Part shown: one piece after another, positions 2,211 through 64,000 of the stretch
How the letters are laid out: every line of letters starts with the position of its first letter
Numbering within the stretch: the stretch's first letter is position 1
Position numbers and translations under genes: made by a program
Notes under the pieces: generated by a model
Database searches by the model: none
What the model was told of the DNA's origin: nothing
The model's input: the letters and a program-made list of their open reading frames with translations, nothing else
NCBI GenBank assembly: GCA_964016885.1
Contig: OZ024740.1
Span: 130,758,001-130,822,000, forward strand
Direction of reading: 5' to 3'
Length of the DNA stretch: 64,000 bases
From: Eledone cirrhosa
Taxonomy: Eukaryota

Positions 2211-2493
2211 ATATACATAGATAGATACACAGACACACACAAACACACATAGACACGCACGCACGCACACACGCACACACACACACACACACACATAGTT
2301 TGTGTGTGTATATGTATGTGTGTCTGTGCGTGTGTGGGTGTATATGTGTGTGTGTGTGTGCGTGTATATGTGTGCGTGTGTATCTATCTATGTATATATA
2401 TATTGGTTTGGGTACAGAAAGAATTTTGTCTACAGTTTTTTATTGCCAGATCAAAGGCCACTGCTCTTTTCAACAACGCCAAATAACAAAGCT

Positions 2494-2551
<58 letters not shown>

Positions 2552-2582
2552 ATATATATATATCTATATCTACATATGTATC

Positions 2583-2658
<76 letters not shown>

Positions 2659-2746
2659 CATATATAAATGAAGAGAGAAAGAGGGATGGACGAAGAGAGT
2701 AAGAAATGTGTGTGTGTTTGGTACACATATATCTATCTATCTATCT
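2208..2746. repeat. Compound microsatellites (CA)n/(TG)n/(TA)n/(TATC)n
   Basis: Direct inspection. Confidence 0.95.
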
Positions 2747-2947
2747 TGATAGAGTGAGACACGCTTCACATCGGCTCTGCTATTCTATCGGAATTTACCC
2801 TGACTATAGTAAGTACCAGTGAATTTTTTCAGTGCAACACATTTGGAACACTTACCCCTGTTATGTAGGGAAACAATTTTACATTTACCCCCTTTTTAGG
2901 GGGTAAAATAAATAACTATTTTTCTGTGAAACTTCTTTCTTGGCCTC

Positions 2948-4800: not shown

Positions 4801-4809
4801 CAACACCAA

Positions 4810-7800
4810 AACAGATCAATTGAGAGTTGGTTGTTTGAATGCGCGTGGCCTGGGCTCAGCTTGGAAGCAAGCAAAGCTTCTAAGTGACATCAGGTAACGA
4901 AGTATAGATGTGATGGTTGTTTGCGAGAGTCGGATCAGCAGCGTGCGACAGATGACTCACGCCTTCGATGACTTTGAGATGCACGCATTTCTCTGTCAAC
5001 CCGGAGGTGGGGGTGGGGTTGCCGTACTGCTGGATAAACGTCTGGCTCCCGACATACAGATTATTCACTCGGACCCGGGGGGTAGATTACTGGTGCTCGA
5101 TGTCGGAGGCGGTGAAGGCTGGTCGGTCTTTATACCCCCCTTCGGGGCTGAAAGAGCCGACTTCTTCCAGCGTCTGGAGGCTTTTCTAGGAACGTCGCGT
5201 TCCCTGCTTTTAGTGGGGGACTGGAATGGAATCCTAGATGCGCGTTGGGACTATGCAGGGGCATGTCCCGATAGAGAGGGGTGCAGCAGCCTCAGAGGGT
5301 TACTCGATCGATTCGACCTGGTCGATAGATTTCGACTAGATTTTCCAACTGTGCCAACCTGGACTTGGGCAAACCGCAGTGGTCAATCTAGATCGTACCT
5401 AGATAGGTTTTTGGTTAGGAGTAAGGATAGGGACGCATTTAGTTGTCCAGAATTGCTCATGGTTGGCTATTCAGATCACAAATTAGTGACCTGCCTGGTC
5501 AACCTTGATAGAACGCATAGACAGGTCCCGGTTACTGGAAGAATAACTTGTCCTTGCCGGCAAAGGAAGCTTAAAGGAACCGGATTAGTAGCTTAGTTAA
5601 GATGCGGTTGACGGGAGCGATCGTCAACACCAGGTGGTGGGTATCGCTAAAGAGAGAGATTAGAGTAAGTTCGATAGGTTACAGTAAGGAACTAGCGGCG
5701 AATAGAAATAGGAGGGAAAAGGAGTTGACAGATAAACTAGAATAGGTGATTAGGAGCGGAGACGTGGCCAGAGTGTTAGCGTCGAGAACGGCGTTGAGCC
5801 AGTTCTTTGACGCGAAGCACGAAGGCTGCGTTGTCCGAAGTAAAATACGTGGTTTAGGAAACGAAGGGACCAAAGCTGATAGCTGGGCCCGCGTGACAGA
5901 AGCCAAGAGTGGGATTAAATCCACCATTCGGTCTTTGCGAGACCAGGATGGACGGGTGATCCTTGAACTAGAGCGGATGTGCGAGGCCTTTCAAAGGCAC
6001 TTTGCTCGACTGTTCGGAGAGGGCGGGGGGCTGGACGGGGATGTGGACTTCGGTCCATATCTCGACGGTCTACCGCGTCTTTCGAGCGGCGAAGCGGAGT
6101 GCTGCGAAAGGTCAATCACAGCCACTGAAATCGGAGAAGCGCTCAGCCAATGCAGCAGACGCAATTCTGTGTGTCTCGATGGTCTACCATACGAACTTTA
6201 TTTAGCTATGCCGGTCTTGTTCTCCCAACTCCTCGAGGTAGTCTATTGCCACTGGCAACAGAACGGGAGAATTCCCTGTTCTGTGACCAAGGGCGTAGTC
6301 ACGCTAGTGAGGAAGGACGAGAGCAAGGGGGATGAATTAAGTAACTTTAGGCCCATAACTCTGCTGAATGCAGAGTTAAAGATTTTGGCCAAGGTGTTAA
6401 CGAAGAGGTTGGCGCTTGTGGTGGGTGGCTTGGTGGGAGACGCGCAGACATGCGCTATCCCGTCCAGGTCCATTCATGACAACCTCCACCTCATGCGATA
6501 CACCGTAGAAAGGGTTGGGAACGAACCCGGCTTTGGTGGGGCCCTGAACAACTTGGATCAATCTAAGGCGTTCAATAGGGTCGACCATGGTTACCTGGAT
6601 GCGGTGCTAGCGGCGGCGGGCTTCGGACCCGTTTTCAGGGGCTGGATTTCTGCCATGCACAGTGGCAACGTCTGCTCTAGGGTTAAAGTAAACGGCTACC
6701 TCTCGGAGCCGTTCTAATCACTCGGTCCATCAGCAGGGGTGCCCCCTCTCCTCCCTTCTGTACGTATTGGCTCTCGAGCCACTGCTGCGGAAGTTGGAGT
6801 TGCTGCGGGGCATACCCCTGGAATCGGGATTGCACAAAGCGGTCTCCTCCTATGCCGACGACGTAACAGTAATGGTGGTGGACGCCTCGGAAATCGGGGC
6901 GATCGCCACTCTACTGGCGGAATACGAAAGGCTGACGGGGGCTAGGCTGAACCGGGACAAGTCAGTCGGTTTGCAACTCGGAACGTGGAGGGGCAAACCG
7001 ATGCCGTTCGACGGTGTCGTCGGACGGTGGACGGAGGGCCCGGTGAAGCTGCTCGGGGTCTGGTTCGGACCGGACCTCCAGGTGGAGAAGAATTGGGGCG
7101 AGGTGACGAGCAGGGTGTTTGCGCTGACCCAGAAGTGGGCCAAGTGCAAACTATCGCTGAAAGGTCGGGCGGAGGTGGCGAACGCTTACATAGCGTCCGT
7201 CATCTACTACCGCCTGACCGTCGTGCCTTGCCCTAAGGAAACGCTCACCATCATGGAGCGCATGCTCTTCCAGTTCCTCTGGAAGAAGCGGCCTCCCATG
7301 GTGAGGAGATCCATGTGCTGCCAGCACCCTTCGAAAGGAGGGCTGGGTATGCCGTGGCTGTTGATGCGTAGGCACGCATTAAGGCTGCGGCATCTACAGG
7401 TATGCCTCACCGGTCAGCCGGTGTGGGACCCGTTTGTGAGGCGAGCCTTCCCACAGCTCGTCTCGCTCACCGAGCTGCATTTCTGGGTGAAGCAAAGACC
7501 GAGAAAACTAGGCAACTGTCACACCGAATGTGCCCAGGCGCTCACGGCTCTCTGGCAAGCGGACCCGACTATCAGTGGAGAATCCACCTCGACATTCTAT
7601 AGAGGGTTGGTGGCTAGCAGGAGCGACGACACTCTTGGAGAGTTGCTAGGCATGGAGGAGGACGAACTGGCCAGCTTGTTCGGTAGAACTTTCGGCCCGG
7701 GACCCATGGAAATCTTCCAGAGGTCCCTAGCCTGGCAGTGCTACCGTGGGGCTCTGCCCGTTCGAGAAAAGCTCTACAGACACGGGCGCCCGGCCAAGGA

Positions 7801-8218: not shown

Positions 8219-8463
8219 TGAAGAAGTGAAAAGGAAAGGGGGAGCGCCTCCTCTCTGGGCTTCCCCCGGGAAAAAGTTTGCACACTTTTCGGGGGTGTGT
8301 GCAATCCCTAACACGCACCCTTCCTTTTGAAGACTTTTTATTATTATATTATTCTTATTGTTATGCCTTTTTTCTTTACTCGCATTTATGTAAACTCACC
8401 CCTGTGTATTTGTCCCTTTCTCTTGTGCCCTAGTGGCAAATATAGAAATATATATATCTCCAA

Positions 8464-8650
8464 CAGGGGGCTCACACATGCGGCGCGCGAACTACTTATC
8501 TGTGGCCCGTGGTAGAATCAATATTTCATACCGCGTTATAACAGGTGAAAATGTTCACCCACCACCACGTTTGGCCCACTGCACCTCTCCTCCAGGACGT
8601 AATAGCCCGTTTGTGTTTGAGAGAACCCTTGACTTTGAGAGCACCCTTCT
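8464..8650 (+). mobile_element. Possible small non-autonomous hAT (MITE) remnant
   Basis: Starts CAGGGGG, contains GGCCCG/GGCCCA/AGCCCG subterminal-like motifs, ends GAGCACCCT. Confidence 0.4.
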
Positions 8651-8657
8651 ACACACA

Positions 8658-8718
<61 letters not shown>

Positions 8719-8871
8719 CACACACAGACATATTTTACTTTTTTTCTCTCTCTGGACTACGCCATGCTGGAGCTTCACTTTGGTATGTTATCGGCACGTC
8801 AACAAACCAACAAGCATTGGTGGGAGGGCAAACACAAACGCAAAAACTCACACAGACATACATACATATAT

Positions 8872-8962
8872 ACGACGAGCTTCTTTTAGTTTCGATCTAT
8901 CAAATCCACTCACAAGGCTTTGGTCGGCCCGGGCAGTGGGACTGAACCCGGAAATATGTGGA
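8872..8962 (-). mobile_element. tRNA-derived SINE fragment (Octopus OR2-like), internally deleted
   Basis: AAATCCACTCACAAGGCTTTGGTCGGCCCG...GCAGTGGGACTGAACCCGG matches a common octopus SINE as recalled. B box GGTTCAGTCCC on the minus strand. Confidence 0.75.
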
Positions 8963-9059
8963 CCCAAAAACATGTGAACCCGCAAATATATACATACGTA
9001 AATGTATGTATGTATATATGTATGTATGTATGTAGATTTATATATATATATGTATGTAG

Positions 9060-12159: not shown

Positions 12160-12197
12160 GCCAACAATGTTTCGTCCTATTAAGGACTCATCAGGGC
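12160..12197 (-). ncRNA. Minimal type I hammerhead ribozyme (canonical core)
   Basis: Minus strand: GCC-CTGATGA-GTCCT taat AGGAC-GAAA-C att G-TT-GGC. Confidence 0.85.
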
Positions 12198-13982: not shown

Positions 13983-15878
13983 CTAATGGATACAATTTAC
14001 ACTACCAGAACCTTTACGTTTATAATAAAAGTAAGAATTTGAAATGGCGTGGGGGCAAGAAGAGAATATCTCACACTTTCTATTAAGTAAGGTTTCCCTA
14101 GAGAAAATTATAGAGTGGGTCTCAAGGATACAGAGATTACAAAATTTTCTATGTGTTGATAGATTATTAGAGCGTGCTACTATTCGCCAATTAAGGCTAT
14201 ATGGTATATTAGCCCCCTTAAGATCCCAGATATGGTGTGCTAAAGAAGTAGAATTCTTAAACTTAACATGTTTAAAATTAGAGATATGAGAATTAAACCT
14301 AGTCTTAAAAGTGTTAGATGTTGAGCCTATATATGTGCTATTAGAGGAATTAGTTTTAACTACACAAGCATAAGCGATGTTCTTAGAGAGGCAATTACCG
14401 TTTAAAGGGCAGTTAACACTCACTCTACACTTACACGTCCGGGTGCTATTGATCGGCTGAAGTAGTGTTGCTCACACGTAGGGTTACTATGAGATAAGGT
14501 CTACTCAGGTGGTAAGACATTTATGGATCTATTCAGATTAGTAGTACGTAGAGAGGAGTATCCATCCCTAATTTTCCCATTGTTAGTGCTAGCTAAATGA
14601 GAACTAATATTAGGGGTGGTAGAGAATGAAAGTTTAATTACATTTTTATTAAAAATACCATGGTATTTATTAGTAGGAGGGAAATGTTTCTCTAAGATAG
14701 AAAAGAAATACCTAGGGATGTTAGTTAATACTTCCTGATTATATGACGGGTTAAAATAAGTATTTAGTCTCCTTCTATTTTTATCCTTACCAACTCTACC
14801 GTTATCTAATATCCCATTATTAAGATTTGGGTTACTACAAGGACTAGTTAAAACCACATTATTAGAATCAGCCGAAACTCCATTAAGTCTCTTTCTGTTT
14901 CTACCTTTAGTATATCTGCTGCTATCTGGAATCATATCAAAAGGATTAGGGCTAATAATAGGATCAGTAGAAACAACACTATTAGAATTAGATTTAGCAA
15001 AAGCATTACCACTGAGTGAGCGCTCAGAGCGCTCGACTTGATTCATAGAACTATTAGATTCCCTATTACGAATCCGGTGGCTTAACTTATGGATGGGTTC
15101 AGATACACCTATGTGATTTCTACGATTCTTATGCATTCTACTCCCATTTATGGCCATATTATGGGATATTATGTTATTATTATTATAAGTAAGCGGATAC
15201 TTTCTAAGGTTACTATGATTATAATGTATTTTACCAGAGTAACCGGAGTTAGCTAGGGCATTATTATAGTACTCTGCATGTGCATCAAATGTTCCTACGT
15301 CCTTAGGGAGTGTAGAAATCCTATTAGATACACCATTAATTATAGGGCTTATCATAGATTTGGGGTGGTTAGAATTGGGACAAACATAAGAGAGTATTTC
15401 ATTAGGCTTATGGAAGGGTTTAAAACTATTAGTGACCAAGTCCAAAGTCACATCTAAAAAGTTGACCGCTCTATCGTTTCTATCTATCGTGATCGAAAGG
15501 TTAAAGCTTTTAAAAAACTTATAAAGCTTCTTCTTATTATGCTCCATGTTGTTGGTGCTAGAGTTAATCACAAACAATGCATCGTCACGATAAAGTCCAC
15601 CTTTAAGGTGCGGACAGGTAACATATAGTTCATTTAGGAGGAACAGCCGAACAAGATCAGTTACCTGGGCCGAATCACTCGAACCCATTGTAACGTCGAA
15701 ATTGTTGGGCGTGTTTTTGCGGGTCCAAAATGTATCCTCAAAATTAATGATAGTTCTACGGGCTGCTAGTATACTATCTACCTGTGATCGTGTAAGGCTG
15801 GACACTCTCATGGCCAACATTAAGGCTTTATTAAGGAAGATGGGTGATATCGATGTGTAATAGGCATCAATATTTTCA
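13983..15878 (-). pseudogene. Naiad-type PLE RT plus GIY-YIG endonuclease (one break near 14460-14500)
   Basis: IDAYYTSI, MGSSDSAQVTDLV, LYRDDAL, VNFLDVTLDL, SNHP, YFNPSY, KHFP...IFNKNVIKLSFS, CKCR...CPLNGNCL, YIGST...FKTRFNSH, LAHHIWDLK, CNLCILE, LNRKCE...CPH. Confidence 0.9.
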
Positions 15879-21370: not shown

Positions 21371-22900
21371 TGAAAGTCGACTGCCTTCTATCCAAGAAAA
21401 GCCTCTCCAGCAACATTGTCTCCAAATGTGAGGACGAAACACCCACGTCCCGTAGGGCCTATATAGGGTTAACTCCCAATAGATTCAAGCAGCGTCTTTA
21501 TATACACACCCATTCTTTTCTTAACGCTTTAAGAAAGTATATGACGTCACTTTCAGCTTATATCTGGAGTCTAAAAGACAACCACACTCAGTATAGGTTG
21601 CACTGGGAGATCCTAGCTTAGGCTAGGTCGTATAACGGAAATAAAATATCTTGTGATCTTTGCGCCGCTGAAGCCCTGGAAATACTCTACGCCAATGACC
21701 AAATCTTAAACAAAAAATCTGAGGCAATTTCGCCTTGTAAACACAAATTGCATAACACTTTTCTGTATTACAGCCCCGCATTATAGCCTAACGGATAGTA
21801 CGGACATTACGCGGATAATTTACGTCTTGATGTGGTAGCTAACTATATTTTATGTTTATACCATTACTTATTTGTATAGGTACGTATACTTTACCCGTAT
21901 GTTTTGGGTAGTACGTATACTTTTTCGTACGTATATATGCTTGTATTTGTTATAGGTGTATATATTATATTACATATACATATATATGTGTATATCGTTA
22001 TGTATATATGCGTATTTTGGGTTTGTGTGTGTATGCGTGTATGCGCGATGCACGTATGTAAGGTGTGTATAGGTTTACATCGTGTATTCATCGACTTGCG
22101 TTTGGTGAACATATGTATATTTACCTGAAGATAGGTGTATGTGTGCGTTATATACTTATTTATGTGTGTATATGTATATACCTTTATATAATTATATGTA
22201 TATATACACACACACATACATTATTTGTTGGGGGTGATAAAATAAAGTACCAGTAATGCACTGGGTAATTACTGGCCTTGTGCCTAACGTAGAAACTATT
22301 ATTTGTTATGTGTATTTGATTTATACTTTCGTATGTGTGCGGGTACATGTGTAGCGCCTGTTTATATGTACGTCCAATTATACGTATGAATGGCGGGTGC
22401 TTTCGCGTATGCAAGTATATATACGTATTTAGATGCATGTATGTATATAGTTAACTATTATTGATTTTAATAACCACTGTCATTTTCATTCTACTAACTT
22501 ATTTACATTATTCTTAATTCTGAAGCCGCGAATCATTCGGTTTCCTAAATAGTATATTAATCTATGACTTCATTTACACCATAAACGTGGTTTTGTCTTT
22601 GCGTGTAATTGTTCTACGCTCCACATAACGACGTATTATCTTCGCTTTTTTCTGTTCATTGCCAGGGAACGTCTTCAAGAACCAAAGTATTGTCTTCCTA
22701 TATTCCTTCGGTTGCATCGTTTTTCGATATATTTACTTCTGCCTTGGTAGATAGATTTTGTTAGTGTAAGAAGATCCCGTTAATGGTGAAAGCATTGTTA
22801 CTTTAATAAATATTTGCTCTAGGGTTCTTATATATTTGATATATATTTATCCTTATCTAGACCTCTTGGGATTTTAGTCTTCACATTTATCATTATTACT
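21370..22900 (+). mobile_element. Naiad-type PLE 3' fragment 2 (GIY-YIG remnant 21370-21786 plus 3' UTR)
   Basis: Manual translation: AYIGLTPNRFKQRLYIHTHSF...TSLSAYIWSLKD...WEILA*ARSY...CDLCAAEALEI...LNKKSEAISPCKH. Confidence 0.85.
22230..22300 (+). mobile_element. 3' fragment of OR1-like SINE
   Basis: GATAAAATAAAGTACCAGTAATGCACTGGGTAATTACTGGCCTTGTGCCTAACGTAGAAAC matches the tail of the 35512 copy. Confidence 0.85.
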
Positions 22901-22999: not shown

Positions 23000-25008
23000 A
23001 TAACAAATTATCGTTAGAGGTAACCAAGTTAGAGGTTGTAAGTACTCTGTGTCGCAGATTAGTTTTAACGTACGGCTTTGGTTAACTCAACAAGATGTTT
23101 CCATTGTTAGGCACCGAGTTCACGGGAATTCCTATGTAGGTTATACTTGGTGTAATAATAGTGAAATATTGAAGAGTAACATGGTTGGCCATACAACAAG
23201 GGGCTTTATTTTATGTATTAACAATTGTTTCATTGTTCAGGTGAGTCAAGAGGCCACTATTCACTCGAAGTTGCGTCACTCGATCTCCATTACCTTATTT
23301 ACCTCTGATCAAATCCTCAGAATACAAATAATTCATGCATGCCATGATATATATAGAGAAATAGCGTAGAATCAAAACAATAACAGCAATAATAAAATGT
23401 ATGATAAATAGCTTACATATGTAAGTTACATATGTAAAAAGTAAAAAGAAAGAAAAAAGATACACTGAAAAAGTAAGAAAGTGGAAAAAATAATGAAAAA
23501 ATATAAAGAAATAAAGATAGGTGAGAGCATATAAGTACAGAATATGATAGTCGTGGTGGTGAGTAAGTGTCTGTATAAGGATGATGCGGTGAATGTAGAG
23601 CTAACATGTAAAGCCATATTCGAAACATACATAGATACGTGTAGAAAATCTGAGGTAGTAACACATGATAGATAAAAGAAAAAAGCAATAAATTAGAAAT
23701 TAAGTGCGAGATAGTAGTATGAGATCCATGGGCTAAGGGTGGATGGTGAATGGCGACATTTGACCAAGGTGTGTGGTAAATGTTTTGCTGATTGTCTTGT
23801 CTTAATGGGGTTGATGTGGTTTCAGCGAGAGAGGGTGAAAGAGATGTTAAGATATTTATGATCTAGTGACCGGCTGTTTGACAGCTAATAGCGGTGTGAT
23901 GGTATGTATTCCATACGTTAAAATCCAATTGGTTCAGTTCTAATTTTGAGATTTCTGGGTCGAATCATGGGAGTTTGAATCGTGTGACATTGGTAGCTAG
24001 TCTGTTCCTACAGAAAATTGATATTTCTGTTTTTCTGTTAAGCAGCATCTTTTCGTACCTTAAAATATGGAATAGCTCCATATTGCAAAGTCTGCAGTGA
24101 ATAATTTCATTGTTGTAAGCCCTTACTCCCGATAATTTTGGCCAGCTAATCCTATATTACTGGTTTGTGTTTTTAAACTGCCAGAATATATTGGCGAGCG
24201 TTGTAGAATTCTCCAGTATACGGTTCTTCATGGAGCGTCTGTGAACGTATCATCTTTTTTTACCTCCCCAGCCGTGGAAGCTGTGTAGAGCCAAGTAAGG
24301 TTGCCTGAATTTATAGTACACTGGTACACCATACTTGAATCCAGGAATCTATTTTGTAGTGAGCACTTATCCGGTAGGTGGCAGTTACAGTTGGAGGCTT
24401 TTTGTGTGCAGGTACTCCGTTGCGGTTTTGTATGTTGTTATAGGTGGGTTGAGATTTAGGCCTATTAATGTTCTGTTGTGATGCACCCTGATGTGTATGT
24501 GGTTGCTATATTGTTATGTGTTTGCGATTTGTATCTGGTGCTATGGTGTATGTTGGTTGATTATTTTCTTTAGAGATGTTTTTGAGGTTGATTTTATGTA
24601 TGTGTGATCCTACCTCGGCTGCAGTAGAGTGAGATAGTTTGAGAGTTCTTCTATTAAATATTATATGGTATGTGTGTAATTTAGGGAAGTGTTTGTCGAT
24701 TAGCTTAAAGAATGTAGAAGGTAATTTGGTTTTTATAGAGGAGTTGAATATTGGATTGAACCATAAGTATTTCCTATGTCTGGATCATCTATAGTGCCTA
24801 GGGATCCTTATATTAGTGTTCGGTTCAATTACTTTTGGTGCTCGTTGTCTAATTCTATGATTAGTCCAGAGGTAAATAATGTAATGGAGTTCGAGTGACG
24901 CAACTTCGAGGGATTGGCAGCCTCTAGACTCACCTGATCAATGAAACAATTGTTAATACCTAAAATGAAGCCCCTTGTTGTGCAGCCACCATGTTACTCT
25001 TCAATCTT

Positions 25009-25010
<2 letters not shown>
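23000..25010 (-). mobile_element. Naiad-type PLE fragment 3 with inverted pLTR piece
   Basis: Minus translation: YLWFNPIFNSSIKTKLPSTFFKLIDKHFPK...IFNRRTLKLS, CNCHLPDKC, TTLANIFWQFK, CRLCNME, LLNRKTE...CRN. 23170-23322 is inverted to 24852-25005. Confidence 0.85.
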
Positions 25011-25072
<62 letters not shown>

Positions 25073-25074
25073 TA

Positions 25075-25678
25075 TATATGAAAAGTGTAATTTACTACAC
25101 AAAACGAAGGTTATAGATAAAATTGAGGTTGGTAATGGCACATGGAATATATAAGAGACAGAATTCTTTTTTGTGAAAAAACATATAATTGTATAAGGTA
25201 AGGAAATAATAAAGGGTATAAAAAATGACCGGTTTCGATGGGTCTGCAAAAGCCATCTTTTCAAATGTTGATTAATATTAAGAAAAATTAATAATAAGAA
25301 GAGTTAAAATTTGAGATTTGAAAATTCAAGTATAGAATTCATTGTGGGATTTCATAGTAGTTTTCATCTTGGTAGCAACTCGTTGACTGCTTCTGGTAGA
25401 GAAGCAGTCAACGAATTGCTACCAAGATGAAAACTACTATGAAATCCCACAATGAATTCTATACTTGAATTTTCAAATCTCAAATTTTAACTCTTCTTAT
25501 TATTAATTTTTCTTAATATTAATCAACATTTGAAAAGATGGCTTTTGCAGACCCATCGAAACCGGTAATTTTTTATACCCTTTATTATTTCCTTACCTTA
25601 TAAAATTATATGTTTTTTCACAAAAAAGTATTCTGTCTCTTATATATTCCACGTGCCATTACCAACCTCAATTTTCTC

Positions 25679-25685
<7 letters not shown>
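25075..25685. mobile_element. Palindromic solo double-pLTR of the Neptune family (foldback)
   Basis: Two inverted arms meet at GTTGACTGCTTCT-ggtag-AGAAGCAGTCAAC. Matches the pLTRs at 42790-43320 and 47930-48190. Flanked by (TA)n. Confidence 0.92.
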
Positions 25686-25727
<42 letters not shown>

Positions 25728-25731
<4 letters not shown>

Positions 25732-26464
25732 GACATCGTTTAAATCTCGATTATATAGGCATTCTTACTCAATAAAACACCAGAGCCAAAGAAATGTAAC
25801 AACTTTAGCAGAAAAAGCTTGGACGCTCAGGGATAGCGATCAAAGGTTTACCCTAAAATGGGAGAAATTAGCTAAATCCCAAAGCTTTTCCAGGAGCCAA
25901 AATTTCTGCAAATTGTGTAATCTTGAGATTTATTACATAATCACACACGAACAAAAATTGCTTAATAACAGAATTGAACGAACATTATTCTGCCGTCACC
26001 GAACTAAAACCCTTTTTTTCCCACTACAAGCTGAATATTACATAAAAGAGGGACATCCCCCCAACTATATAAACCTCAATCTAGATAGAAAAATATAAAA
26101 ACAATCTCTTCTCAACATATTATGTATATTAATAACCTTAAATTACCACACTAATAATGGAAAGATATGCTGATGAGAATAGGTGCAAATATGCTATAAT
26201 GAATGTGTCTAAAAGCGACCATATGTATGTATATATATGTGAAAATGTATATAAATAAGTAAATATATATATATGTTTGATGTGTATATTAGATGTAAGT
26301 GTATTCATGTATTAAAGTGTTTATATATATATATATATATATACACACATAGACTGGAGTAAGTATGTATATATGTGTGTGTCTATACGTGTCTATATAA
26401 AGATAAGTTGAGTATGAAAATATATACACATGAATGCGTATGTATGTACATGTATATATGTATA

Positions 26465-28312: not shown

Positions 28313-30400
28313 CTATATAGCTTGAGGGAGTTCTGGCCGAGAGGTGTCTACATGTTCTGGAGAAGTACCTATAGGGCGTTCACATCTTATTGTGTTGCTA
28401 CTGTCCATATATCTTGAGGAAGGTCCGGCCCTGAGGTGTCTGCCTGTCTCGAAGAAGTCGGTTCTGAGGTTTATCAGGCCGCTTCCAACTCTTATTATCT
28501 CGAGGGTCTCGTTCAGACATAGTTTGCATATGCAAGATCCCCCTTTGTCGAGTGGTACATTCCTGATTATGGACCAGGCCAGAGAGTACGGGGTCATGTC
28601 CAGCTTAAGCTTCCAGATTAGGTCGGAGAGAGCCGCACTTTTCCATTTGGCCTCCTTATTGAAGGAATGGCGATGGTTATACCAGCGGTCATTAAAGCTC
28701 CTTGATGTTGCTCCTATGTAGAGGTGTTCGGAGTTGGGGGTTTTAACCCTACAACCGTACACTAGGTTCTTCTTAAGGCAGTCATTACCAAGGGGGCATG
28801 ATGCAGTGTTTCTGCAGTTGCAGAGGGTGGTCGACCTCTGAGTGCCTATATTGGGTTCCCGTTAGGTGTTATATGGTGGTCTTCCCCGAGGCGCGGTGGG
28901 GGGTTCCCGGGTCTGTTTGGGTTTCTTGGGTGGCCACAGGGTCCCCCCCTTCCCTCCTTTCACATCGTTCTGCTGAGTGCTTGTATTGCCATCTTCTAGT
29001 TGTGTGTGGTTTTTAAGCCTACTCCTGTTGATGCTAGATATGTGTTGGTCCAGATTTCTCGTGGTGGAACACAAGAGTTTCACAGTGTGTCTGTTGAAGA
29101 TCTTGTGGTATATATTGTACCTCGAGAGGCATTTATCAAGTACACCAAAGAATGATCGTGCCAAGCTGTTCTTTAGGGCCGCTGAGTAGTGTGGGTTGTA
29201 CCACGTCATTTTTTCTGAGTCTCCTCCTATATGTGTGGGTCGGGGGCGTCCTGAGTTGTTGGAGATTTGTTGGGTTGCTGGTGGTTCCCGCATTGTTGCT
29301 TCCCCTTTGGGCGCTATGCCTTTTGCTATCTTCACGGCCGGAATCTGTGGGGTGGTCGTTGCCCGCGCTGGGAGAGCTACCATGAGGTGCCCCCCCCCCA
29401 CACGTCTCCTCCAGTTGGGGTCGTCAGGCCAGGGTGGTTAGCATCACCCCTGAGACTGCTACTCATATTGGGTTTCAAGCCATGGTTAAGCGTACTCGTC
29501 ACCAACATGTTGGTGTCGGGCTCATGGTGCCTATTTGTTTTTTTTCTGTCTGTATTGTTAGAGTAAGCCCTTCCCCCCGGGCAACACGTGTGTGGGTGTC
29601 CGTTGGGCCATCCCCATCCCGGCGTTTCGGACTGTATGTTATATTTTGACCATGTGCCGCCTTATCTAGAGCTGCGTTGTAATATTCCGCGTTCTTATCG
29701 AATATTTCCTTACTTGCGGACAGCCTGGAGATCCTGTCCGTATCACTCTTCACCACAGCCTTGGTTATGGATCTAGGGTTGTTTGACTTGGCGTTAACAT
29801 ACACGAGTTTCTCGTTGGGCTTGTGGTAGGAGTAGTATTGTTCGGTATTCAGGTTTAGTGTCGTGTATAGGAAGTTAACTACCATTCTATTTGGGTCTAG
29901 TTCTGTACTGAGCCCCTGGTCCTTAAAGAAATGTTGTATACGCCTCCTCATTCCCTCCAACATATTGGTGCTGTGGTCATATACTGTGAAGAGAGCATCG
30001 TCACGATAAATCCGCCGCCCAGGCAGGGGATTTCATCTTTTATCTGCTTCAGCAGGAAGAACCCAACCAGGTCCGTTACCTGTGCTGAGAAGCTGGAGCC
30101 CATCGCGATGTCAAAATTATTTGGCCAATCACACTTGGTCCAAATGTCTCTATTGAAACGGATTAAGGTATTTATTGCGGCGTGGATGATGCTCACCTCC
30201 TCTCGGGTTAGGTCCGTGTTAGACATCGCTAAAAGTAGGGCCTTATTGAGTACTATGGGTGAGCTTGAGGAGTAGTGGCCTGCGATATCCAATTGTATAA
30301 AGCTGGTTTTACTTTTCTCCTGTAGTATCTTTAACCATTCTATTACCTATCCCGTCCAAAACCATTGCTGTAGTTTAGTTTCCTTGCGAAGCCATTTGAC
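28313..30400 (-). pseudogene. Naiad-type RT plus GIY-YIG, frameshifted
   Basis: MGSSFSAQVTDLVG, VNFLYTTLNL, YHKPNEKLVYV, WYNPHYS, KIFNRHTVKL, CNCRNTASCPLGNDCLKKNLVY, YIGATSRSFNDRWYNHRHSF, CKLCLNE. Confidence 0.9.
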
Positions 30401-30791: not shown

Positions 30792-33700
30792 TTTCTAGGT
30801 GATAATAATACATCGTGCGCATATTATTCGTTATCGATCTATGTAGAGTTAGTTACACAATATCAAATAAGGAATATATTAACCTACATGTATATCATCA
30901 GACGTTGTCTGAAGCAATGACAATTTTATTCAAAATCAATATTAAATTGAGGTATATGACCTTATATGGAGGTAGCTGAGGAACAAACCAATCAAATGTT
31001 TTTTTTACCATATGATGTTAAGGTGAAATATAACTCACTTTAGTTGAGGTCATGGCCCTTGAAAGGAATGGTTGAATGGTGTTAAAAATAGAATTACTAT
31101 AAATAACCTATGAAGAAAATGGAATTGATATATTGATAAGGGATTGAGTGAAGTTTAAAAAGGAATGTAAAAATTAAATGTTGAGTATTGGTGTATGGAA
31201 TTTTTAGGTGAATATAAATAAGTAAATATAAAATATACAGACATACCTAGGCTAAATATAGATAGGTAAAGATATGGTCATAAATAGGAAGGATAGTATA
31301 TTAAAAGATGAAAATTATAATAAGATAATAAAATATAATAATATAATAATATAATAAACTGTAATATAATATAGTACAGTATGGTATATTGTATATAGTA
31401 TAATATAGCGCATGATGCATCATAAAATATAAAATAGTAAATATGTTCAAGTGGGTCTATGTATAAGTAATCAAACTCAGATAAATGCATGTTGACATAT
31501 AGTCAAAATGAATAATTTTCTTAGTTCATAAAAGTACATATATTCACATATATAGATAGAAGTACAATTACATAGATACTCCTTTAAAAACATACATACG
31601 CATACGTAGATATAAACATATACAAATACATACATACACGCAAATAAACATATATATGTATATATATATATATATATATCATAAATGATGTCCATATAAT
31701 CATTTGATAAAATGTATACACTATTTCCTTTCCCAATTAGCATAATTAACCACATAAAAAAGCAATTAGACCAGGCTATAAGGATAAAGGCTCCTATGAA
31801 GAAATATTTGATAAATAAACGATGCAGCCTCTTCGCGGCCGACCGCAATAGAATATTTACCCAACATTTCAACAGCATGTAGAAATCGACTAAATATACT
31901 TTCAACCATACACTATTAGGTATACATTTAAAGTTAGAAGAAATTCCTACACTCTTATATATATATACACATATACATACCTATATACATGTACACACAC
32001 ATACATGTACATACACATATACACACAGATACACATATACCCGCATATATATATATACACTTGTATATATATTCTCTTATCATAGATACATAGATACATG
32101 TATACCTATGCAATTACAGGTGGTTATGTACCTTGATTCCCTTAGACAGTAACGCATGAATCTATGGAAGCTAAACAATTAAAAGGTTAACAAATAAAAA
32201 AATCAACAGGAAGGCGTATAATTAGGGGAAGGGGATAATAACAAATTATACGTCACATAGAACTATAGTGAGTTGCTATTTAGAATGTTTAATCAGATTT
32301 ATAGTACTTAAATGTTTTTTCGTATACGGTGATTACAAGCTATAATCAGTCCTGTCTTTTATGCAATAAATCGTCCTTAGATTTAGTAATTTCCAATATC
32401 TCCTCGGAACATAATCTGCATTCTCTCCTGTTCGAAATATATGGAGTTATTTGCAGAATGGTATTTCACGATAGCTAAAATCTACGTTTTGCTGTTTACA
32501 GTTATTTACTGCTTCAGCTAAATATGTGGTGTTAGCTTGTTTAGTATTGTTAAAGCTACTGGAGTGTGCGTAATATATTTTCTTAAATGTGTTCGATGTA
32601 GATCCTATATATGATTTGTTGGAGTCAGTAGTAGACACAGTGCATGTATATATTACATTATTAATCAAACAGTTGCCATTTAATGGGCAAACGCTTCTAT
32701 TTCTGCAATTACAACCATAAGTAAGATGGTTATTGGGGGTAACTACATAATTCTCATTAATCCTTGAGCTATTATTATTGTAATTCATGTTAGAGAGAGA
32801 ATGAGTGATGCTTTGTGGGCGATTTAGTGCTGGGGATGTATTGTGATATTGTGTTATGTTGTTTTTGTGTTGGTGATTTGGGTGGTTGTGTTTTCCAGGT
32901 TGAAGGATTGTATTATTTGTCCTTTTAAATGGTGCGCTCTTATTTAAATTATGTTGTGGTGGTGTGGTCATATTATTTTTAAATTTATAAATGTTGTAGT
33001 TGCATATTCTTTGCTAGAGATTGTTTGATGTAGAGTATGAGAATTTAACAGTATACCTGTTAAATATTTGGAGGTATCTGTGGTTTGGTGGAAAGGGTTT
33101 ATGTAGAATTTCGATGAATTGTTTTGGGATTTGTCCAATAGTTTGCAGGTTGAAGAGTGCGTTGTACTATGTTATGTTTCTTTTGCGGTTTTTAGTTAAG
33201 TTCTTATGTCCACTTATATTAATGTGCTGTGTTCTAGAAGAGTTCTTATGGATAGTGTTTGCATTTGTAGAATTTGGTAAATTGCAGTTGTTGTATTTGG
33301 TGTTATTATTGGGTAGATTATGAGAGGTTGAATGTTTGGTAGTCATATGTGAGTTGTTAACATTGGTCATATATCGTGTAGTAATAGTTGGTTTGGTTTT
33401 TCGATTGTTTGGTGTGATAGGAATGACCCCATTAAGCATTTGTTTCGATGGTATTTTGGGGTATTTGTAGTTTTTGCTAGGTTTATTAGTATGGTCCATA
33501 GTAATGTTGGGATATATGCAATTGTTTATTTATATCCACTTTTAGTTAGGGCTTCGATGTAGAAGGGTGCATTTTTATAAAATATATCCTCATTTGAAGA
33601 TAATTTAGAAAGTCTAAGAGATATGTTATATACTAATTTGTTGAGTATAGAGCCAGGGTGGTTAGAACCTGAATGTACATAGTGTAGATTCAGTTTGGGT

Positions 33701-34496
33701 TTGTGGTAAGGTTGATAATTATTCGTAGAGAGGTCTAAGGTAACGTCAAGGAAGTTAGCTACTTTTGAGGTGATGTTAAGGTTGTAATAGTCATTGAGGA
33801 ATTTTCTAATTTGGTTTTTGTTTTTCTTCATATTAGAATTGCTAAGATTGTTAGATATCAATAGACAATCATTCCGATAAAGACAACCATTCAGTAGATT
33901 TAACAATACTAAACTAGCTAACACACATATTTAGCTGAAGCAGTAAACAAATAGATTTCTAGCTATCGTGGAATACCATTCTACAAAGAACTCCATATCT
34001 TGGGAACAGGAAAGAATGAAGATTATGTTCCGAGGATATCTTGGAAATTACTAAATCTAAGGGCGATTAATTGTATAAAACACAGAAACTGATTATAGCT
34101 TGTAATCATCGTATACGAAAAACATGTAAGTACTATAAACCTAATTAAACATTCTAAACAGCAACTAAATATAGTTCTATGTGGCGTACCATTTGTTAGT
34201 ACCTCTTCCCCTAAGTATACGCCTTCCGGTTTATTTTTTTTTTATTTTTCAACCGTTTAAATTTTGAGCTTCCATAGATTCATGCGTTACTGACTAAGGG
34301 CATCAAGGTTTATAACCACTTGTTATTGCATGTGTATACATGTACCTACGTATGTATGATAAGAGAATATATATATATGTTTATATATATAAATGTGTGT
34401 ATATGTATATGTGCGTGTATATGTATATGTGTATGTACATGTATGTGTGTGTACATGTATATAAGTATAAGTGTGTATATATATATATATATATAT

Positions 34497-34925
34497 AACG
34501 AAGGAAATGTGGTAAAGAACCAGGTGGACCATAACGCACCAAAGTACTCAATACTTAGGGTAGTAGAGTGGGTAATAGGAACAAGACTTACTTACCGCTT
34601 CGACCTCCTCCCCCTCCCCCTCCCCAGTATCTTCTTTGACCTCACACCCAGCTGCAGCTGGCACTACCAACGCATGAATGGGTCTACTCCACCCCCTCTC
34701 CCTTTTTCTCCTACCGGCAGGTTTAGCTACCCCTTCCCCCACCAATTTGCCATCACAGATTTACTACTGACTTGTGATGTGACCAATCCTGGTGATTATC
34801 AGTTTGACCATATATGGAATTACCCCTTGATAAGCTCGGCTATTTAAATACCAGAATAAATTTTCATTCAGTACAGAATTAGCCGTCGAAACGGCTTGAG
34901 CTCAGCCGTCGGGGTCTTACTTGTT

Positions 34926-34930
<5 letters not shown>
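34497..34930 (+). mobile_element. Short PLE terminal fragment nested in (TA)n
   Basis: Contains a complete HHR. ATAGGAACAAG (34575-34585) is inverted to CTTGTTCCTAT (34920-34930). Absent from the left arm of the host element. Confidence 0.7.
34822..34915 (+). ncRNA. Type I hammerhead with U3:A8 core and stable stem III
   Basis: ACCCC-TTGATAA-gctCGGCTA...TAGCCGtc-GAAA-CGGCT tgagctc AGCCG-TC-GGGGT. Confidence 0.85.
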
Positions 34931-34980
<50 letters not shown>

Positions 34981-35136
34981 ATATTTGGGGAGGGTCATAT
35001 TTGCGTAATATTGCCAGAATGAATATCAGAACACACTCACTGTTTGGTTGGTTTTCGCTTCTCGCTGTCTTTTATATATATATATCTGCGATCTAACTTA
35101 CTCGGTCCTCAATGTTGCCATTGACTGACCGGCGGT

Positions 35137-35190
<54 letters not shown>

Positions 35191-35511
35191 TGGGTTCGTG
35201 TATGTATGTATTTGTATATGTTTATATCTATGTATGCGTATGTATTTTTTTAATGGAGTATCTACGTAATTATACCTCTATCAATATATGTGAATATATG
35301 TACCTTTCTTATCTTAGAAAATTATGCGTTTTGACTATATGTCAACATGCATTTATCTGAGTTTGTTTACTTATGTATAGACCCACTTGAAAATATTTAC
35401 TATTTTATGTTTTATGATGCCTCATACGCTATATTATACTATATACAATGTACAATACTGTACTATATTATATTACATTATATTATATTATTATATTATT
35501 CTTATATTATT

Positions 35512-42570: not shown

Positions 42571-43118
42571 GTGAGATTTTTTTACAAAATAAAAAATAAC
42601 CGAGGTGTCCTACACGAGTGAAAGTATAAAGAAAAAAAGGTGAAATCGAAAATGCAACTGGAGTCTTATTTAAAAAAAAACATATATATTTATTTGGTTC
42701 CTTTATCGGTTTCGCAGTTCTCCTGCTTTTCAAAAGTAGAGTTGAGATGGAAGTCTGTGGTTTTTCTCATGTTATCACCTCTTTATATAATATATATGAA
42801 AAGTGTAATTTTCTACACAAAACGAAGGTTATAGAGAAAATTGAGGTTGGTAATGGCACATGGAATATATAAGAGACAGAATACTTTTTTGTGAAAAAAC
42901 ATAATTTTATAAGGTAAGGAAATAATAAAGGGTATAAAAAATGACCGGTTTCGATGGGTCTGCAAAAGCCATCTTTTCAAATGTTGATTAATATTAAGAA
43001 AAATTAATAATACGAAGAGTTAACATTTGAGATTTGAAAATTCAAGTATAAAATTCATTGTGGGATTTCATAGCAGTTTTCATCTAGGTAGCAACAATAA
43101 TTTTTCTTAATATTAATC

Positions 43119-44612: not shown

Positions 44613-46836
44613 TCAACCTCTCAAAGACACCTCTAACCAACACACAAATCAACATTTTAAGTAAGGACCTGAAATTTACACCTACACCACGTAAACCAAA
44701 CTTCCCCGAAATGAAGGATGACATCATGGAATACTGCCGAAAGCTGCGACTAACGGAATTCTTCCACAACGACACCAACACTGAAGACGAATCACTGGTT
44801 AGAAATAAAAGCAATTTCTGCCCACAAAAGGGAAGAAATAAAGCACTGGACACGTACTGCGAACACATCACTAACTTTACCTATGAAATAATTACAAATA
44901 AACACACGAAATCAAACCTATCTACACACGAATGGGAAGAATTATTCACACTTAGAAACAACCCTGAGATAACCATCAAAGAAGCCGATAAAGGCAGTAC
45001 TGTTGTCATTATGAATACGGACTACTATAGGACCCTCGCACTTAACATTTTAGAAAACAACACATACTATGAAAATACAGAAAACTACAAACACACCAAA
45101 ACAATGGGGAACCTTTTGACCTTACTGAATAAATATCGCAACAGCTTAACCACGAAATAGTTTAACTATATAAGCCACTTCAAATGCAATACAAGCTCTT
45201 TTTACGTCTTACCGAAACTCCACGAATGTAAACCCATAAACGATGCATGTGACACCTCAACCAACAATTACATTGAACTAACACCACCAGAAGACCTAAA
45301 ACTCAGGCCAATTATAGCAGGCCCTACATGTGAAACCCACAGACTTAGCAACTTTCTGGACATCCTACTGAAACCATTTCTACAACATATACAGAGCTAC
45401 ATACGAGATGACCTTGACATGCTGAAACACCTCCCTAAAACAGTAAGTGCAAATACAATTCTTGTCTCCTTTGACGTAATAAACCTCTACACAAACATAC
45501 CTCACAACTATGGAATAACAGCAGTCCAATACTGGCTTAACACACACCCATCAGAAATACCGACACGCATCAACACAGATTTTATCACTGACGGACTCCG
45601 CTTTATCCTACAAATAACTACTTCACATTCAATGGTTCAACATACAGACAAGTATCAGGTACGGCAATGGGCACGAAAGTAGCACCCACATATGCCAACC
45701 TAGTCATGGGATTCCATGAACAACAAATATACAGTCAGTCCCTTCTCTTATTTGGAGACTCTTTCCACACACACCTCAAAGCCAATTGGAAAAGATATCT
45801 AGACGACTGCTTTATCCTATGGCAAGAAGACAAGAACTCACTACGTTTAAAAACATGATAAACAACATAGATAATAACATACAATTCACAATGGAATCCA
45901 ATCCTAAGGAATTAGCCTTCTTGGATATTCTCATCTCTGTAATAGACGGGAAATTAGATACAGATATATTCTATAAACCCACAGATTCCAAGCAATACCT
46001 CTTTTTCACATCAAGTCACCCAAAACATACAAAACTTAACATTCCTTACAATTTGGCCAAACGTATATGTACCATAGTATCAGATCCACCTAAACGGGAG
46101 CAAAGACTAAAGGAACTAAAAGAGCCTTTCCACTTGAAATAATCAACAATGGAATAGACAGGGCAAAACACCTAAATCCCCATCAACTTAACAATCCAAA
46201 ACAGAAAACCACACTCAACACCCTGCCATATGTATCCACTTTCAACCCCAGAAATACCTAAATGTTTGATCACCTACACAAAAACCTCCCTATCCTACTT
46301 AAAGATGTAAAAATGAAGTCTATTCTTGAAACACACAAGATCCTTAAAAGTAAAAGACAACCCAAATCACTTAAACGCATTCTCACTGGACCAAATATAC
46401 CCAAACCAATCCTCAACCCTACAGTTACCAAATGTGGTAGAACAAACTGTGGAACGTGCCTCTACCTCACTGAAGGACAAACATTTACATTCAAAGATGG
46501 CCAAACATTTACAGTAAAAAACAATTTCACCTGCAACTCGGAGAACTTGATTTACGCAATAACTTGCGGTGGGTGCAAACACAACTACATAGGACAGACG
46601 GGCACCTCATTACGCAAAAGAATGACCATCTACCGCAACAAATCCGGGACTTTAACACAAGAAAAATCCCCTTGAGCAGCCATATTGCGAACTGCGCAGG
46701 TATGACACTACCCAACTTTAAAATCTTCCCCTTCTACAAGTGCTTAGATTCGTTCACACAGCAACAAAGAATAAACAAAGAAAATCTATTCCTTAACAAA
46801 TTTAAACCAAAACTAAACGGGTTATCACCCCAATAG
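44573..46836 (+). pseudogene. Neptune-type RT plus Cys linker plus GIY-YIG endonuclease, disrupted
   Basis: IINLS..L...LSK.LKFTPTP, IKEADKGSTVVIMN, LRPIIAG, FDVINLYTNIPH, MGTKVAPTYANL, WKRYLDDCF, FLDI, YKPTDS, CGRTNCGTC, TCNSENLIYAITCGGCKHNYIGQT, FKPKLN. Confidence 0.95.
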
Positions 46837-47682: not shown

Positions 47683-48183
47683 GTATATGTATGTATGTGT
47701 GGATGAAGGTATGTGTGTATATATAGGTGTAAGTGCACTAAATCCCTTTCTATCACGCTCCACTCTCCTACCCACCACAAGAAGATATGTGTATGTATAT
47801 TGCTTCCACCCCCTCACTGACCAGCAGCTGGCCAGTTGGCCATTGCTAAATCTGACCTTTATAAAATAACCCACACCCCAAATAACTTCTCATTCACTAC
47901 CAGAAAGGGACACAGCAGTCAACCTGTTGTTGCTACCTAGATGAAAACAGCTATGAAATCCCACAATGAATTTTATACTTGAATTTTCAAATCTCAAATT
48001 TTAACTCTTCGTATTATTAATTTTTCTTAATATTAATCAACATTTGAAAAGATGGCTTTCGCAGACCCATCGAAACCGGTCATTTTTTATACCCTTTATT
48101 ATTTCCTTACCTTATAAAATTATGTTTTTTCACAAAAAAGTATTCTGTCTCTTATATATTCCATGTGCCATTACCAACCTCAA

Positions 48184-55629: not shown

Positions 55630-55674
55630 AGTCATAGTTCTTTCGTCACACACTATGTGACCTCTTCAGTGACT
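55630..55674 (-). ncRNA. Type I hammerhead (canonical core)
   Basis: Minus: AGTCA-CTGAAGA-g-GTCACA tagtg TGTGAC-GAAA-G aa C-TA-TGACT. Confidence 0.8.
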
Positions 55675-62382: not shown

Positions 62383-64000
62383 TGAAAGAGAACAAAGGAA
62401 CTATTATGACATTATAACAAGTTTATTGCCGACAGCCGTTTCGTCCGACCCCATGGTGGGACTTATCAAGGCATATAACATGTGATTGCAAGATCATTGT
62501 TTACATCAACGTATCACTCAAGACTAGCAGTTTGAATTGTTGTATACATCAGCAACTCCGCTTTAAGGGGGGCTCTTTTATATTAGTTGTCGGGGTCAGG
62601 GATTGAAGTTTAAAAATTAGACAAAAATATATAATTTACGCATCAACATTAAACTAAAAGACATGGGGTCCCGCAGAAGCACCTTAGAAAATCCCTCAAT
62701 GAGTGCATAAAGCTTACAGGCTCCAATAAACCTATTAGTCTAGAAGAAAATTAAGAGGCTAATAAAATAAGAAAATAAAAATATAAAGTTTCCCTAAAAA
62801 ATATATAAAGTTCCTATGAAATTTCTTCTACAGTAAAAAAATTTTTTCCGAAAGAAAAAAACCTTCTTCGCCCGAGATCACGTTTACAAAATTCAGAAAA
62901 CTGAATTGAAAACTAGGTTGAAAGAAACTAAACAATTAGAGGTTAATTCAGAGAGCCTTCCATAAATCTCTCAGAAAAGGCCCCTTTAATATTTCCAATA
63001 GGAACTTCTTCCGAGAGACCCTTCGAAGAATTAAAATTCTAGAGAGCCTTTAAGGATAAATATAAAAACGTATTGAGGAAAATGATACATTAAAAGTTAA
63101 AAATTAAAAATGACGGTATTTGGGATATCCGAGGAATTTTCAAAGGGCTGCTTCAACAGATACAACTTAGGCATAATAGATACAATAATCTAAGCAATTT
63201 AAGTAATTTAATTAGGGAGCAATTCAAGGAGTTTATCAAGTTGGGCAAGATTAAAGAAAGTGGTAACTAAGAAAATACATAAGCAAAAAGACAATAATCA
63301 TAAAATGTATCTTTAAGAAGGTATAAGGCAGCTTCAGTGATCTAACCATGTATTATCACAAAAAAACATTCTAAAATTATTGATACAGGATTAAAAATTA
63401 TTACAAAATGATTACAAAATTACCACAAAATCATTACAAAATTATCAAATCATCACTAAATTACCACAAAATCATTACAAAATTATCAAATTATCATAAC
63501 ATTATCGCAAAATTATTACAAAATTATCATAAAATTATTACAAAAATATAACAGGATGAATTGCTTAGATTATTGTATCTATTATGCCTAAGTTGTATCT
63601 GTTGAAGCAGCACTTTGAAAATTCCTCGGATATCCCAAATACCGTAATTTTTAATTTTTAACTTTTAATGTATAATTTTCCTCAATTCGTTTTTATATTT
63701 ATCCTTAAAGGCTCTCTAAAATTTTAATTCTTCGAAGGGCCTCTCGGAAGAAGTTCCTATTGGAAATATTAAAGGGGCCTTTTCTGAGAGATTTATGGAA
63801 GGCTCTCTGAATTAACCTCTAATTGATTAGTTTCTTTCAACCTAGTTTTCAATTCAGTTTTCTGAATTTTGTAAACGTGATCTCGGGCGAAGAAGGTTTT
63901 TTTCTTTCGGAAAATTTTTTTTTTCTCTAGAAGAAATTTCATAGGAACTTTATATATTTTTTAGGGAAACTTTATATTTTTATTTTCTTATTTTATTAGC
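62380..64000 (-). mobile_element. PLE terminal region with inverted arm (62757-63195 / 63563-64000), runs off the window
   Basis: Long inverted repeat, terminal HHR and (TA)n flank. The spacer contains an ~11-bp AAAATTATCAC-like minisatellite at 63385-63545. Confidence 0.8.
62427..62473 (-). ncRNA. Type I hammerhead with U3:A8 core
   Basis: Minus: TGCC-TTGATAA-GTCC caccatggggtc GGAC-GAAA-C ggct G-TC-GGCA. Confidence 0.85.

Follow-up and report, generated by a model that had tools for sequence, protein, structure and literature searches.

A U3:A8 hammerhead motif with a hairpin stem III, predicted to act as a monomer, in an abundant Penelope-like element of Eledone cirrhosa

The genome of Eledone cirrhosa carries thousands of copies of a Penelope-like element (PLE) with a hammerhead-type motif in its pseudo-long terminal repeats (pseudo-LTRs). 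One such motif, 94 nt long, occupies positions 34822-34915 of the plus strand of the window, the stretch of 64,000 nucleotides analyzed here (assembly GCA_964016885.1, contig OZ024740.1, positions 130,758,001 to 130,822,000, forward strand); coordinates without a locus name refer to this window. All core positions fit the hammerhead consensus except C3 and G8, which are U3 and A8 here. With a probability of about 0.7, we read the motif as the pseudo-LTR hammerhead of a very abundant PLE, lying in a dead truncated copy and predicted to cleave sense transcripts after C34910 as a monomer. A preliminary description of the window, made from the letters alone, had claimed a U3:A8 hammerhead at this place, and a hammerhead-shaped motif with a pair-preserving core was indeed confirmed.

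Every element listed for the motif (stems, core, GAAA, GUC site, and a loop of about 37 nt) was found in place base for base, and the loop is exactly 37 nt. Stem I is a plain 5-bp helix without an evident loop or bulge, formed by ACCCC (34822-34826) and GGGGT (34911-34915), with pair probabilities of 0.68-0.94 for its 5' strand. The core box TTGATAA (34827-34833) reads U3 U4 G5 A6 U7 A8 A9. Helix II as a whole (34834-34887, helix probability about 0.79) can be closed by G34834:C34887 (G10.1:C11.1), which is followed by an internal loop of C34835 and T34836 opposite T34886 and by a 6-bp helix of CGGCTA (34837-34842) with TAGCCG (34880-34885), capped by loop II (34843-34879). G12 A13 A14 of the core (34888-34890) make up, together with A15.1, the GAAA at 34888-34891. 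The stem III hairpin (34891-34909) pairs ACGGCT (34891-34896, beginning with A15.1) with AGCCGT (34904-34909, ending with U16.1) around the loop TGAGCTC (34897-34903), which contains the palindrome GAGCTC. C17 (34910) and the 3' strand of stem I complete the motif (34910-34915), the predicted cut lying between 34910 and 34911. Three helices of 5, 6 (+1), and 6 bp thus converge on the core with the open ends in stem I, which is the type I topology.

Folding results reported here are thermodynamic predictions. The hammerhead junction is the centroid structure of the window copy, with helix probabilities of up to 0.94 for stem I, 0.79 for helix II, and 0.74 for stem III. Within stem III, the five core-proximal pairs reach 0.63-0.74 and the loop-closing pair 0.47. 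The A15.1:U16.1 pair has a probability of 0.63 in a single copy; for the three minimal hammerheads of the window the values are 0.07, 0.01, and 0.04. The claim of a stable and atypical stem III therefore stands as a prediction: it is expected to hold without a second copy, which sets it apart from the palindromic stem III of 8-10 nt in the minimal hammerheads of related PLEs. Minimal hammerheads of the dimer-dependent class have a stem III that is absent or 1-2 bp long, and here a 6-bp hairpin is present instead; the palindromic stem III or loop 3 of that class is represented by GAGCUC in the loop. Folding of two copies gave an 18-bp intermolecular stem III at -66.3 kcal/mol, vs twice -24.9 kcal/mol for two single copies. 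Given this helix and the palindromic loop, the motif may also act as a dimer.

The descriptor used for the chance control required a CUGANGA or UUGANAA core, GAAA, U16.1, H17, and at least 5 pairs in each of stem I, helix II, and the hairpin stem III. Fitted to the motif, it gave a single match in the 64-kb window (34822-34915) and none in 100 dinucleotide shuffles searched on both strands. A much looser scanner produced 11 matches in 30 shuffled windows. That the motif is merely such a match to a loose descriptor is nevertheless hardly credible in view of the fitted descriptor's empty shuffles and of the repetition of the motif in thousands of copies of an element class known for hammerheads.

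The preliminary description had proposed a search for the parent element. It showed that 34589-34930 is a copy of a PLE pseudo-LTR and that TTGATAA is not private to this copy. The layout of the element is seen at locus L032, where an inverted 5'-truncated copy (1420-4706) is followed by a 664-bp pseudo-LTR (4705-5368), a body of about 3 kb, and the pseudo-LTR again (8335-8997). Self-comparisons of L032 and L031, along with many inverted pairs, likewise revealed pseudo-LTRs with an inverted 5'-truncated copy upstream. A single frame (L032 5566-7629) encodes the protein. Its reverse transcriptase part has 450 relatives at E-values up to 1e-3 (best 5.9e-104), and RVT_1 was matched by one of the four relatives scanned. 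Its C-terminal part is Cys-rich and GIY-YIG-like and matches the C-terminus of the relative P0065 (E 7e-31); the GIY...YIG and Cys motifs were read from the sequence and are what we take to be those of this endonuclease type. No Pfam family was matched by the element's own open reading frames (ORFs), and a search for solved structures with P0065 found none. The motif sits about 1.2 kb beyond the ORF. Full-length units also occur in tandem: five of them, on the minus strand with a spacing of 3,542-3,543 bp and followed by a plus-strand copy, are found at G000:C1:91473158-91487446.

The element has two discrete 3' ends about 90 nt apart, one at ...CCTAT (short) and the other about 90 nt beyond (long). 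In a first sample of 30 copies with (TA)n flanks, 18 had the short end, 11 the full tail, and 1 a partial tail, and (AT)n directly followed ...CCTAT in 18 of the 30; a second sample of 30 comprised 16 short and 14 long ends. The predicted cleavage site lies 20 nt upstream of the short end and about 110 nt upstream of the long end. A frame running from reverse transcriptase to GIY-YIG, pseudo-LTRs, an optional tail, and a microsatellite target identify the element as an endonuclease-bearing PLE. The Cys-rich linker and the (TA)n target hint at the Neptune-like or Hydra-like types. The described anatomy of such PLEs comprises a hammerhead-bearing pseudo-LTR, a truncated copy in inverted orientation, insertion into microsatellites, and a tail that may be present or absent (PMC8557442, available in part; PMC11167929); the published tail of 30-40 bp differs from the approximately 90 nt of this family.

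In the window, the element is represented by a small composite insertion. A 5'-truncated forward copy of the pseudo-LTR, 342 bp long (34589-34930, plus strand), ends at the short 3' end ...CCTAT and is 96.8% identical to the 3' pseudo-LTR of L032. Another 39 genomic places match it at 97%-98% over exactly the same span (40 scored of 2,381 candidates), and most family copies extend upstream of its break point. It is joined head-to-head to an inverted 3'-terminal piece of the same element (34498-34585, minus strand, 88 nt; blastn 99% over 101 nt to L032, reverse) that comprises 11 nt up to the short end together with the approximately 90-nt tail and has no hammerhead; this piece matches the 3' extension beyond CCTAT seen in 11 of 30 copies. 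The junction is filled by 3 nt, act (34586-34588), where 28 of 30 copies have a different sequence before TACTTACCG. The whole lies within (TA)n: a (TA)11 tract on the left (34476-34497) is part of the microsatellite target of the insertion, and an (AT)n tract was read on the right (34931-34977). The window copy is a stub and most likely inert.

The window is dense with old PLE copies. Diverged fragments of PLE reverse transcriptase and endonuclease, with 28%-57% amino acid identity to the L032 element, were observed at 14019-15874, 21382-21795, 23998-26053, 28436-30400, and 32355-34142.

The family comprises 2,844 flank-anchored matches spanning the motif and 13,876 matches to its 3' half. 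Of 6,681 matches in family context, 5,070 have U3:A8, 1,559 C3:A8, 43 U3:G8, and 9 C3:G8. These counts establish that A8 is fixed in the family and that position 3 is U in about three quarters of the copies; the concern that other copies might carry CTGATGA, which the preliminary description had raised against itself, did not materialize. Counted by hand, the first 100 of the 2,844 flank-anchored matches included 79 TTGAGAA, 17 TTGATAA (96 UUGANAA together), 4 damaged, and no canonical cores. In the first 100 U3:A8 copies, counted by hand, N7 was G in about 58, A in 16, U in 14, and C in 12, and all four bases occur there in recurrent subfamilies. Recurrent differences between subfamilies within the 94 nt concern N7, the bulge base 34835, loop II, and one G:C pair of stem III replaced by G:U in the major subfamily. 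They break no helix and spare U4, G5, A6, A8, A9, GAA, A15.1:U16.1, and C17.

The nine C3:G8 copies were considered as a possible ancestral lineage. This was rejected: they are scattered singles among sequences of the C3:A8 type, and their rate (0.6%) is about that of U3:G8 (43/5,070), so they are read as random A-to-G changes. A canonical ancestor was also sought elsewhere in the genome with the pattern CTGATGAGN{14,24}GAAACGGCT, and the three matches proved to be junctions of head-to-head mini-insertions without stem I or II. In the head-to-head mini-insertions at loci L039, L040, and L041 (about position 1501), the forward arm starts with CTGATGAG, which equals the canonical box, without stem I or helix II; these letters are possibly filler. 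Private changes are more numerous in the C3:A8 lineage (CTGAGAA; sampled at loci L164-L183) than in those with U3:A8, and it looks like an intermediate between canonical and U3:A8 cores.

The history of position 3 was examined on an unrooted tree of copies from which the two core columns had been excluded. Of 40 copies, 35 were used, and 5 with truncated or non-homologous flanks were dropped. Position 3 needs two changes on this tree, and none of 200 bootstrap trees permits a single one. Forcing a single U3 clade cost 50.6 log-likelihood units and was rejected (p-AU 4e-5). With C as the outgroup state, the tree suggests that C changed to U twice independently while position 8 was already A; the two resulting lineages later became the most numerous and are the youngest-looking.

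The outgroup state was sought in 78 metagenome loci encoding relatives of the element's protein (L042-L119), using the scanner with positions 3 and 8 left free. Minimal hammerheads were found on the ORF strand in 28 of the loci. Their 37 motifs comprised 34 with C3:G8, none with U3:A8, and 3 with other bases; six matches on the opposite strand give the background. These hammerheads lie on both sides of the ORF, 100-200 nt from its ends and on the same strand; their stem III is a palindrome of 8-10 nt, and compensatory changes are frequent in stems I and II. Two canonical C3:G8 minimal hammerheads also lie in the window on the minus strand (12160-12197 and 55630-55674), and the helix II of the former, GTCCTTAATAGGAC, is nearly identical to that of metagenome locus L043. 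C3:G8 with a dimer-type stem III is therefore likely the ancestral state, and the family appears derived in both respects. The ancestor would have had C3:G8, G8 would have become A8 at the base of the family, and C3 would then have become U3 twice, restoring the core pair. Stem III would have grown from a short palindrome requiring a partner to a self-folding 6-bp hairpin that kept its palindromic loop.

Two further U3:A8 families are represented in the window, and the three are unrelated in sequence. The second (62427-62473, minus strand; 313 exact pattern matches in this repeat family) is a minimal hammerhead with the core TTGATAA, helix II GTCC/GGAC, and a stem III, ACGGCTGT, whose pairing requires two copies; TTGATAAG and GAAACGGCT are common to it and the motif at 34822-34915. 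Kinship of these two families was rejected, since their DNA is alike only in an inserted fragment of the tail and proteins gave no match within 1.5 kb; the dissimilarity of flanks noted in the preliminary description holds accordingly. The third family occurs as an inverted pair (48044-48081, plus strand, and 42898-42985, minus strand) with a weak stem I, the core TTGAAAA, helix II GATGG/CCATC, and the palindrome ACCGGT. Its pattern is matched 2,059 times in the genome, the first 100 matches all being U3:A8, and a weak reverse transcriptase-like match lies between the copies (45909-46085).

A number of findings weigh against a cleaving pseudo-LTR hammerhead. The hammerhead (-24.1 kcal/mol) is not the minimum-energy fold of the window copy; an alternative at -24.9 kcal/mol pairs TAGCCG, from the 3' side of helix II, with ACGGCT, from the 5' side of stem III (P about 0.21). 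The subfamily of this copy also has a C/U mismatch adjoining G10.1:C11.1. It is therefore not the best construct for an activity test, as had been proposed; in the major subfamily (GAUCGGCUA, AGCUGU), an extra A:U pair stands beside G10.1:C11.1, and the minimum-energy fold is the hammerhead. Rfam reported no hammerhead in the window at the gathering score or in 34300-35300 at E-values up to 10, but the same models also miss the canonical minimal hammerheads found by the scanner in seven related PLE loci, so this negative is uninformative. Two in-frame stops in the reverse transcriptase are common to all four copies covering the site, and the sampled elements may therefore be non-autonomous. 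The 1,559 copies with a mismatched C3:A8 core multiplied nonetheless, and a paired 3:8 is consequently not required for spread. The U3 group was defined only once the first tree had been seen. The bulge base adjoining the core changed several times across lineages, so parallel change or exchange between subfamilies is common, and the two C-to-U changes could be neutral. In published systems, hammerhead mutations left the in vitro insertion of an Anolis PLE unaffected (PMC11167929), and PLE clades without hammerheads thrive according to the available part of PMC8557442.

The shared stops are TAA and TGA, 18 nt apart (L032 6601-6621), and are seen also in L031, L141, and L144, across subfamilies; a third stop (TAG, L032 7156) is private to L032 and its near-duplicates. 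An intron or selenocysteine was rejected as the reading of the shared stops, given that the relatives align there without gaps and that the stops are a TAA and a TGA.

Some of these points would suit a fold kept for a job other than cleavage, with the core an inactive relic: an RNA structure recognized by the reverse transcriptase near its internal starts, or a shell around a promoter in loop II. The motif ends 20 and about 110 nt before the two 3' ends, the would-be starts of reverse transcription, and in the Anolis element the RNA segment required for insertion overlaps the hammerhead region, while hammerhead mutants insert normally (PMC11167929). The size reached by the C3:A8 lineages and the family-wide fixation of A8, despite G8 being canonical, point the same way. 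However, the fixed positions are those that a hammerhead requires (U4, G5, A6, A9, GAA, A15.1:U16.1, C17), while the free N7 takes all four bases, and position 3 moved twice toward pairing with A8; protein binding predicts neither pattern. We therefore regard such a role as unlikely, although it deserves consideration.

A neutral leftover is a much weaker candidate. In this case, the family would simply be so young that all of it seems conserved, and U3 and A8 would be two chance transitions hitch-hiking in successful master copies. Copies of the window's subfamily are 97%-98% alike, so conservation within it carries no weight; C-to-T is the commonest type of change, and the adjoining bulge base is homoplastic as well. 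But lineages with many flank substitutions and indels retain the three helices and the core, and the recurrent differences inside the 94 nt are all structure-neutral. Moreover, three sequence-unrelated families of the genome share U3:A8, and hammerheads occupy the corresponding position in relatives from other organisms. Taken together, these observations make neutrality very improbable.

Under the preferred reading of a cleaving hammerhead, sense transcripts containing the whole motif, from the downstream pseudo-LTR or from tandem units, would cleave after C17. The 5' product would carry a cyclic phosphate, and the 3' product would start with GGGGUC. Read-through or tandem transcripts would thus be cut 20 nt before the short 3' boundary of the element. 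Cut RNA would lose the start sites of reverse transcription, because these are located downstream of the cut, which fits uncleaved RNA as the template of insertion (PMC11167929). The cut might serve the formation of mRNA 3' ends or the separation of units, or nothing at all.

The oversized loop II has features of its own. A sequence overlapping it, TATTTAAATA (34841-34850, plus strand), presumably resembles a TATA box, with a putative function as such, and TCAGTA inside it (34868-34873, plus strand) is what we take to be initiator-like. The latter marks a hot spot at which short copies begin. In a sample of 30 copies matching the motif's 3' half (L120-L149), 19 start within one 9-nt span in loop II, and the commonest start of short copies is the A of T(C/T)AGTC, 29 nt after TATTTAAATA. 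Short copies are often head-to-head pairs with arms of 60-150 nt, both inner ends being at the loop II start point. Judging from these positions, the ends of short copies look like run-off at the 5' end of an RNA, that is, transcription would start within the ribozyme.

We tentatively consider a joint reading, which is possible rather than probable, in which loop II houses the promoter of the element and the change of G8 to A followed twice by that of C3 to U is compensatory evolution caught in the act. If loop II is the promoter, transcripts from the upstream pseudo-LTR would begin midway through the hammerhead and include no more of it than the inactive 3' half, and only the downstream copy would ever form a whole ribozyme. 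This would account for the dimer-dependent stem III becoming a self-sufficient hairpin, and for thousands of head-to-head mini-insertions of 60-150 nt ending at the start point, which would reflect reverse transcription initiated internally, within the initial 60-150 nt of these RNAs. The arrangement would differ from that of Penelope of Drosophila virilis, whose start site is upstream of the hammerhead and whose promoter is TATA-less (PMC2377424 and PMC4209133, both available in part).

Locus L150 (714-1381) contains a tandem of a 257-bp unit, two full and one partial; each full unit joins the motif's 3' half to the tail and to 110 nt from the 5' region that comes next. This tandem looks like the result of template jumping back to the loop II start point. 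A retrozyme reading was rejected: the window copy is single, and the unit of L150, the one tandem examined, is without the 5' half of the motif. Animal non-LTR retrozymes are short hammerhead-bearing repeats thought to derive from PLE pseudo-LTRs (PMC7229834; bioRxiv 10.64898/2026.07.22.740005; both available in part). Retrozymes are tandem units each with a complete hammerhead, whereas the 257-bp unit has only the 3' half.

Millions of PLE hammerheads are known; their role is nonetheless unsettled, and as single copies most cleave poorly. Here, one genome offers a natural series: canonical C3:G8 relatives, a C3:A8 lineage of 1,559 copies, a pair of U3:A8 lineages that outnumber it with 5,070 copies, and a stem III expected to fold without a partner. 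The question thus becomes testable with four short natural RNAs. A literature search for assays of C3U/G8A found nothing usable.

The U3:A8 core is itself already known, having been published in 2011 and 2014, and the novelty implied in the preliminary description has to be withdrawn. Natural covariation of C3/G8 to U3/A8, the same as in this motif, was reported by Perreault et al. (2011), who state that in vitro activity of such cores had been demonstrated before (PMC3088659, as far as its available text goes). In Schistosoma mansoni, U3:A8 minimal hammerheads were described from the pseudo-LTRs of the Cercyon PLE by Cervera and De la Pena (2014), who reported about 1,300 matches (PMC4209133, available in part). 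According to that text, Cercyon resembles the present case in the class of element, the location on the sense strand of the pseudo-LTR, U3:A8, the high copy number, the closing pair G10.1:C11.1, a base left unpaired in the 5' strand of helix II, and palindromic sequence at stem III. The Cercyon motifs are, however, presented there as minimal, without a stable stem III, and thought to be dimeric, whereas this motif combines a loop II of 37 nt with a stem III hairpin of 6 bp and 7 loop nucleotides.

Hammerheads of telomere-associated PLEs of fungi and protists have a large stem III and are active as monomers, that of Serpula lacrymans having a reported kobs of 1.97 and 0.16 per min at 10 and 1 mM Mg (PMC4209133, same part). 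The likeness lies in the stem III, although monomer activity was measured there and is predicted here. As described in that part, these PLEs lack an endonuclease, are telomeric, and have canonical cores; the present element is of the endonuclease-bearing animal type, targets (TA)n, and has U3:A8.

In PAc, a Poseidon element of Anolis, pairing of C3 with G8 matters, as single mutants were dead and the double mutant was partly rescued (Frangieh et al., 2024; PMC11167929). Its hammerhead likewise lies shortly upstream of two internal reverse-transcription starts that give an optional tail. PAc differs in having a C3:G8 core, a cleavage that needs the element's protein, and a tail of 30-40 bp, compared with U3:A8 and a tail of about 90 nt in this family. 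The related C3:G8 PLEs (L042-L119 and the two motifs in the window) differ in their palindromic stem III and their proximity to the ORF ends, the family having a hairpin stem III and a motif about 1.2 kb after the ORF; they share their strand with the ORF, which they flank, and their stems I and II covary. It is unusual for an endonuclease-bearing element of the animal type to combine U3:A8 with a stem III hairpin and a loop II of 37 nt; also unusual are the large C3:A8 intermediate lineage and the presence of three sequence-unrelated U3:A8 families in one genome.

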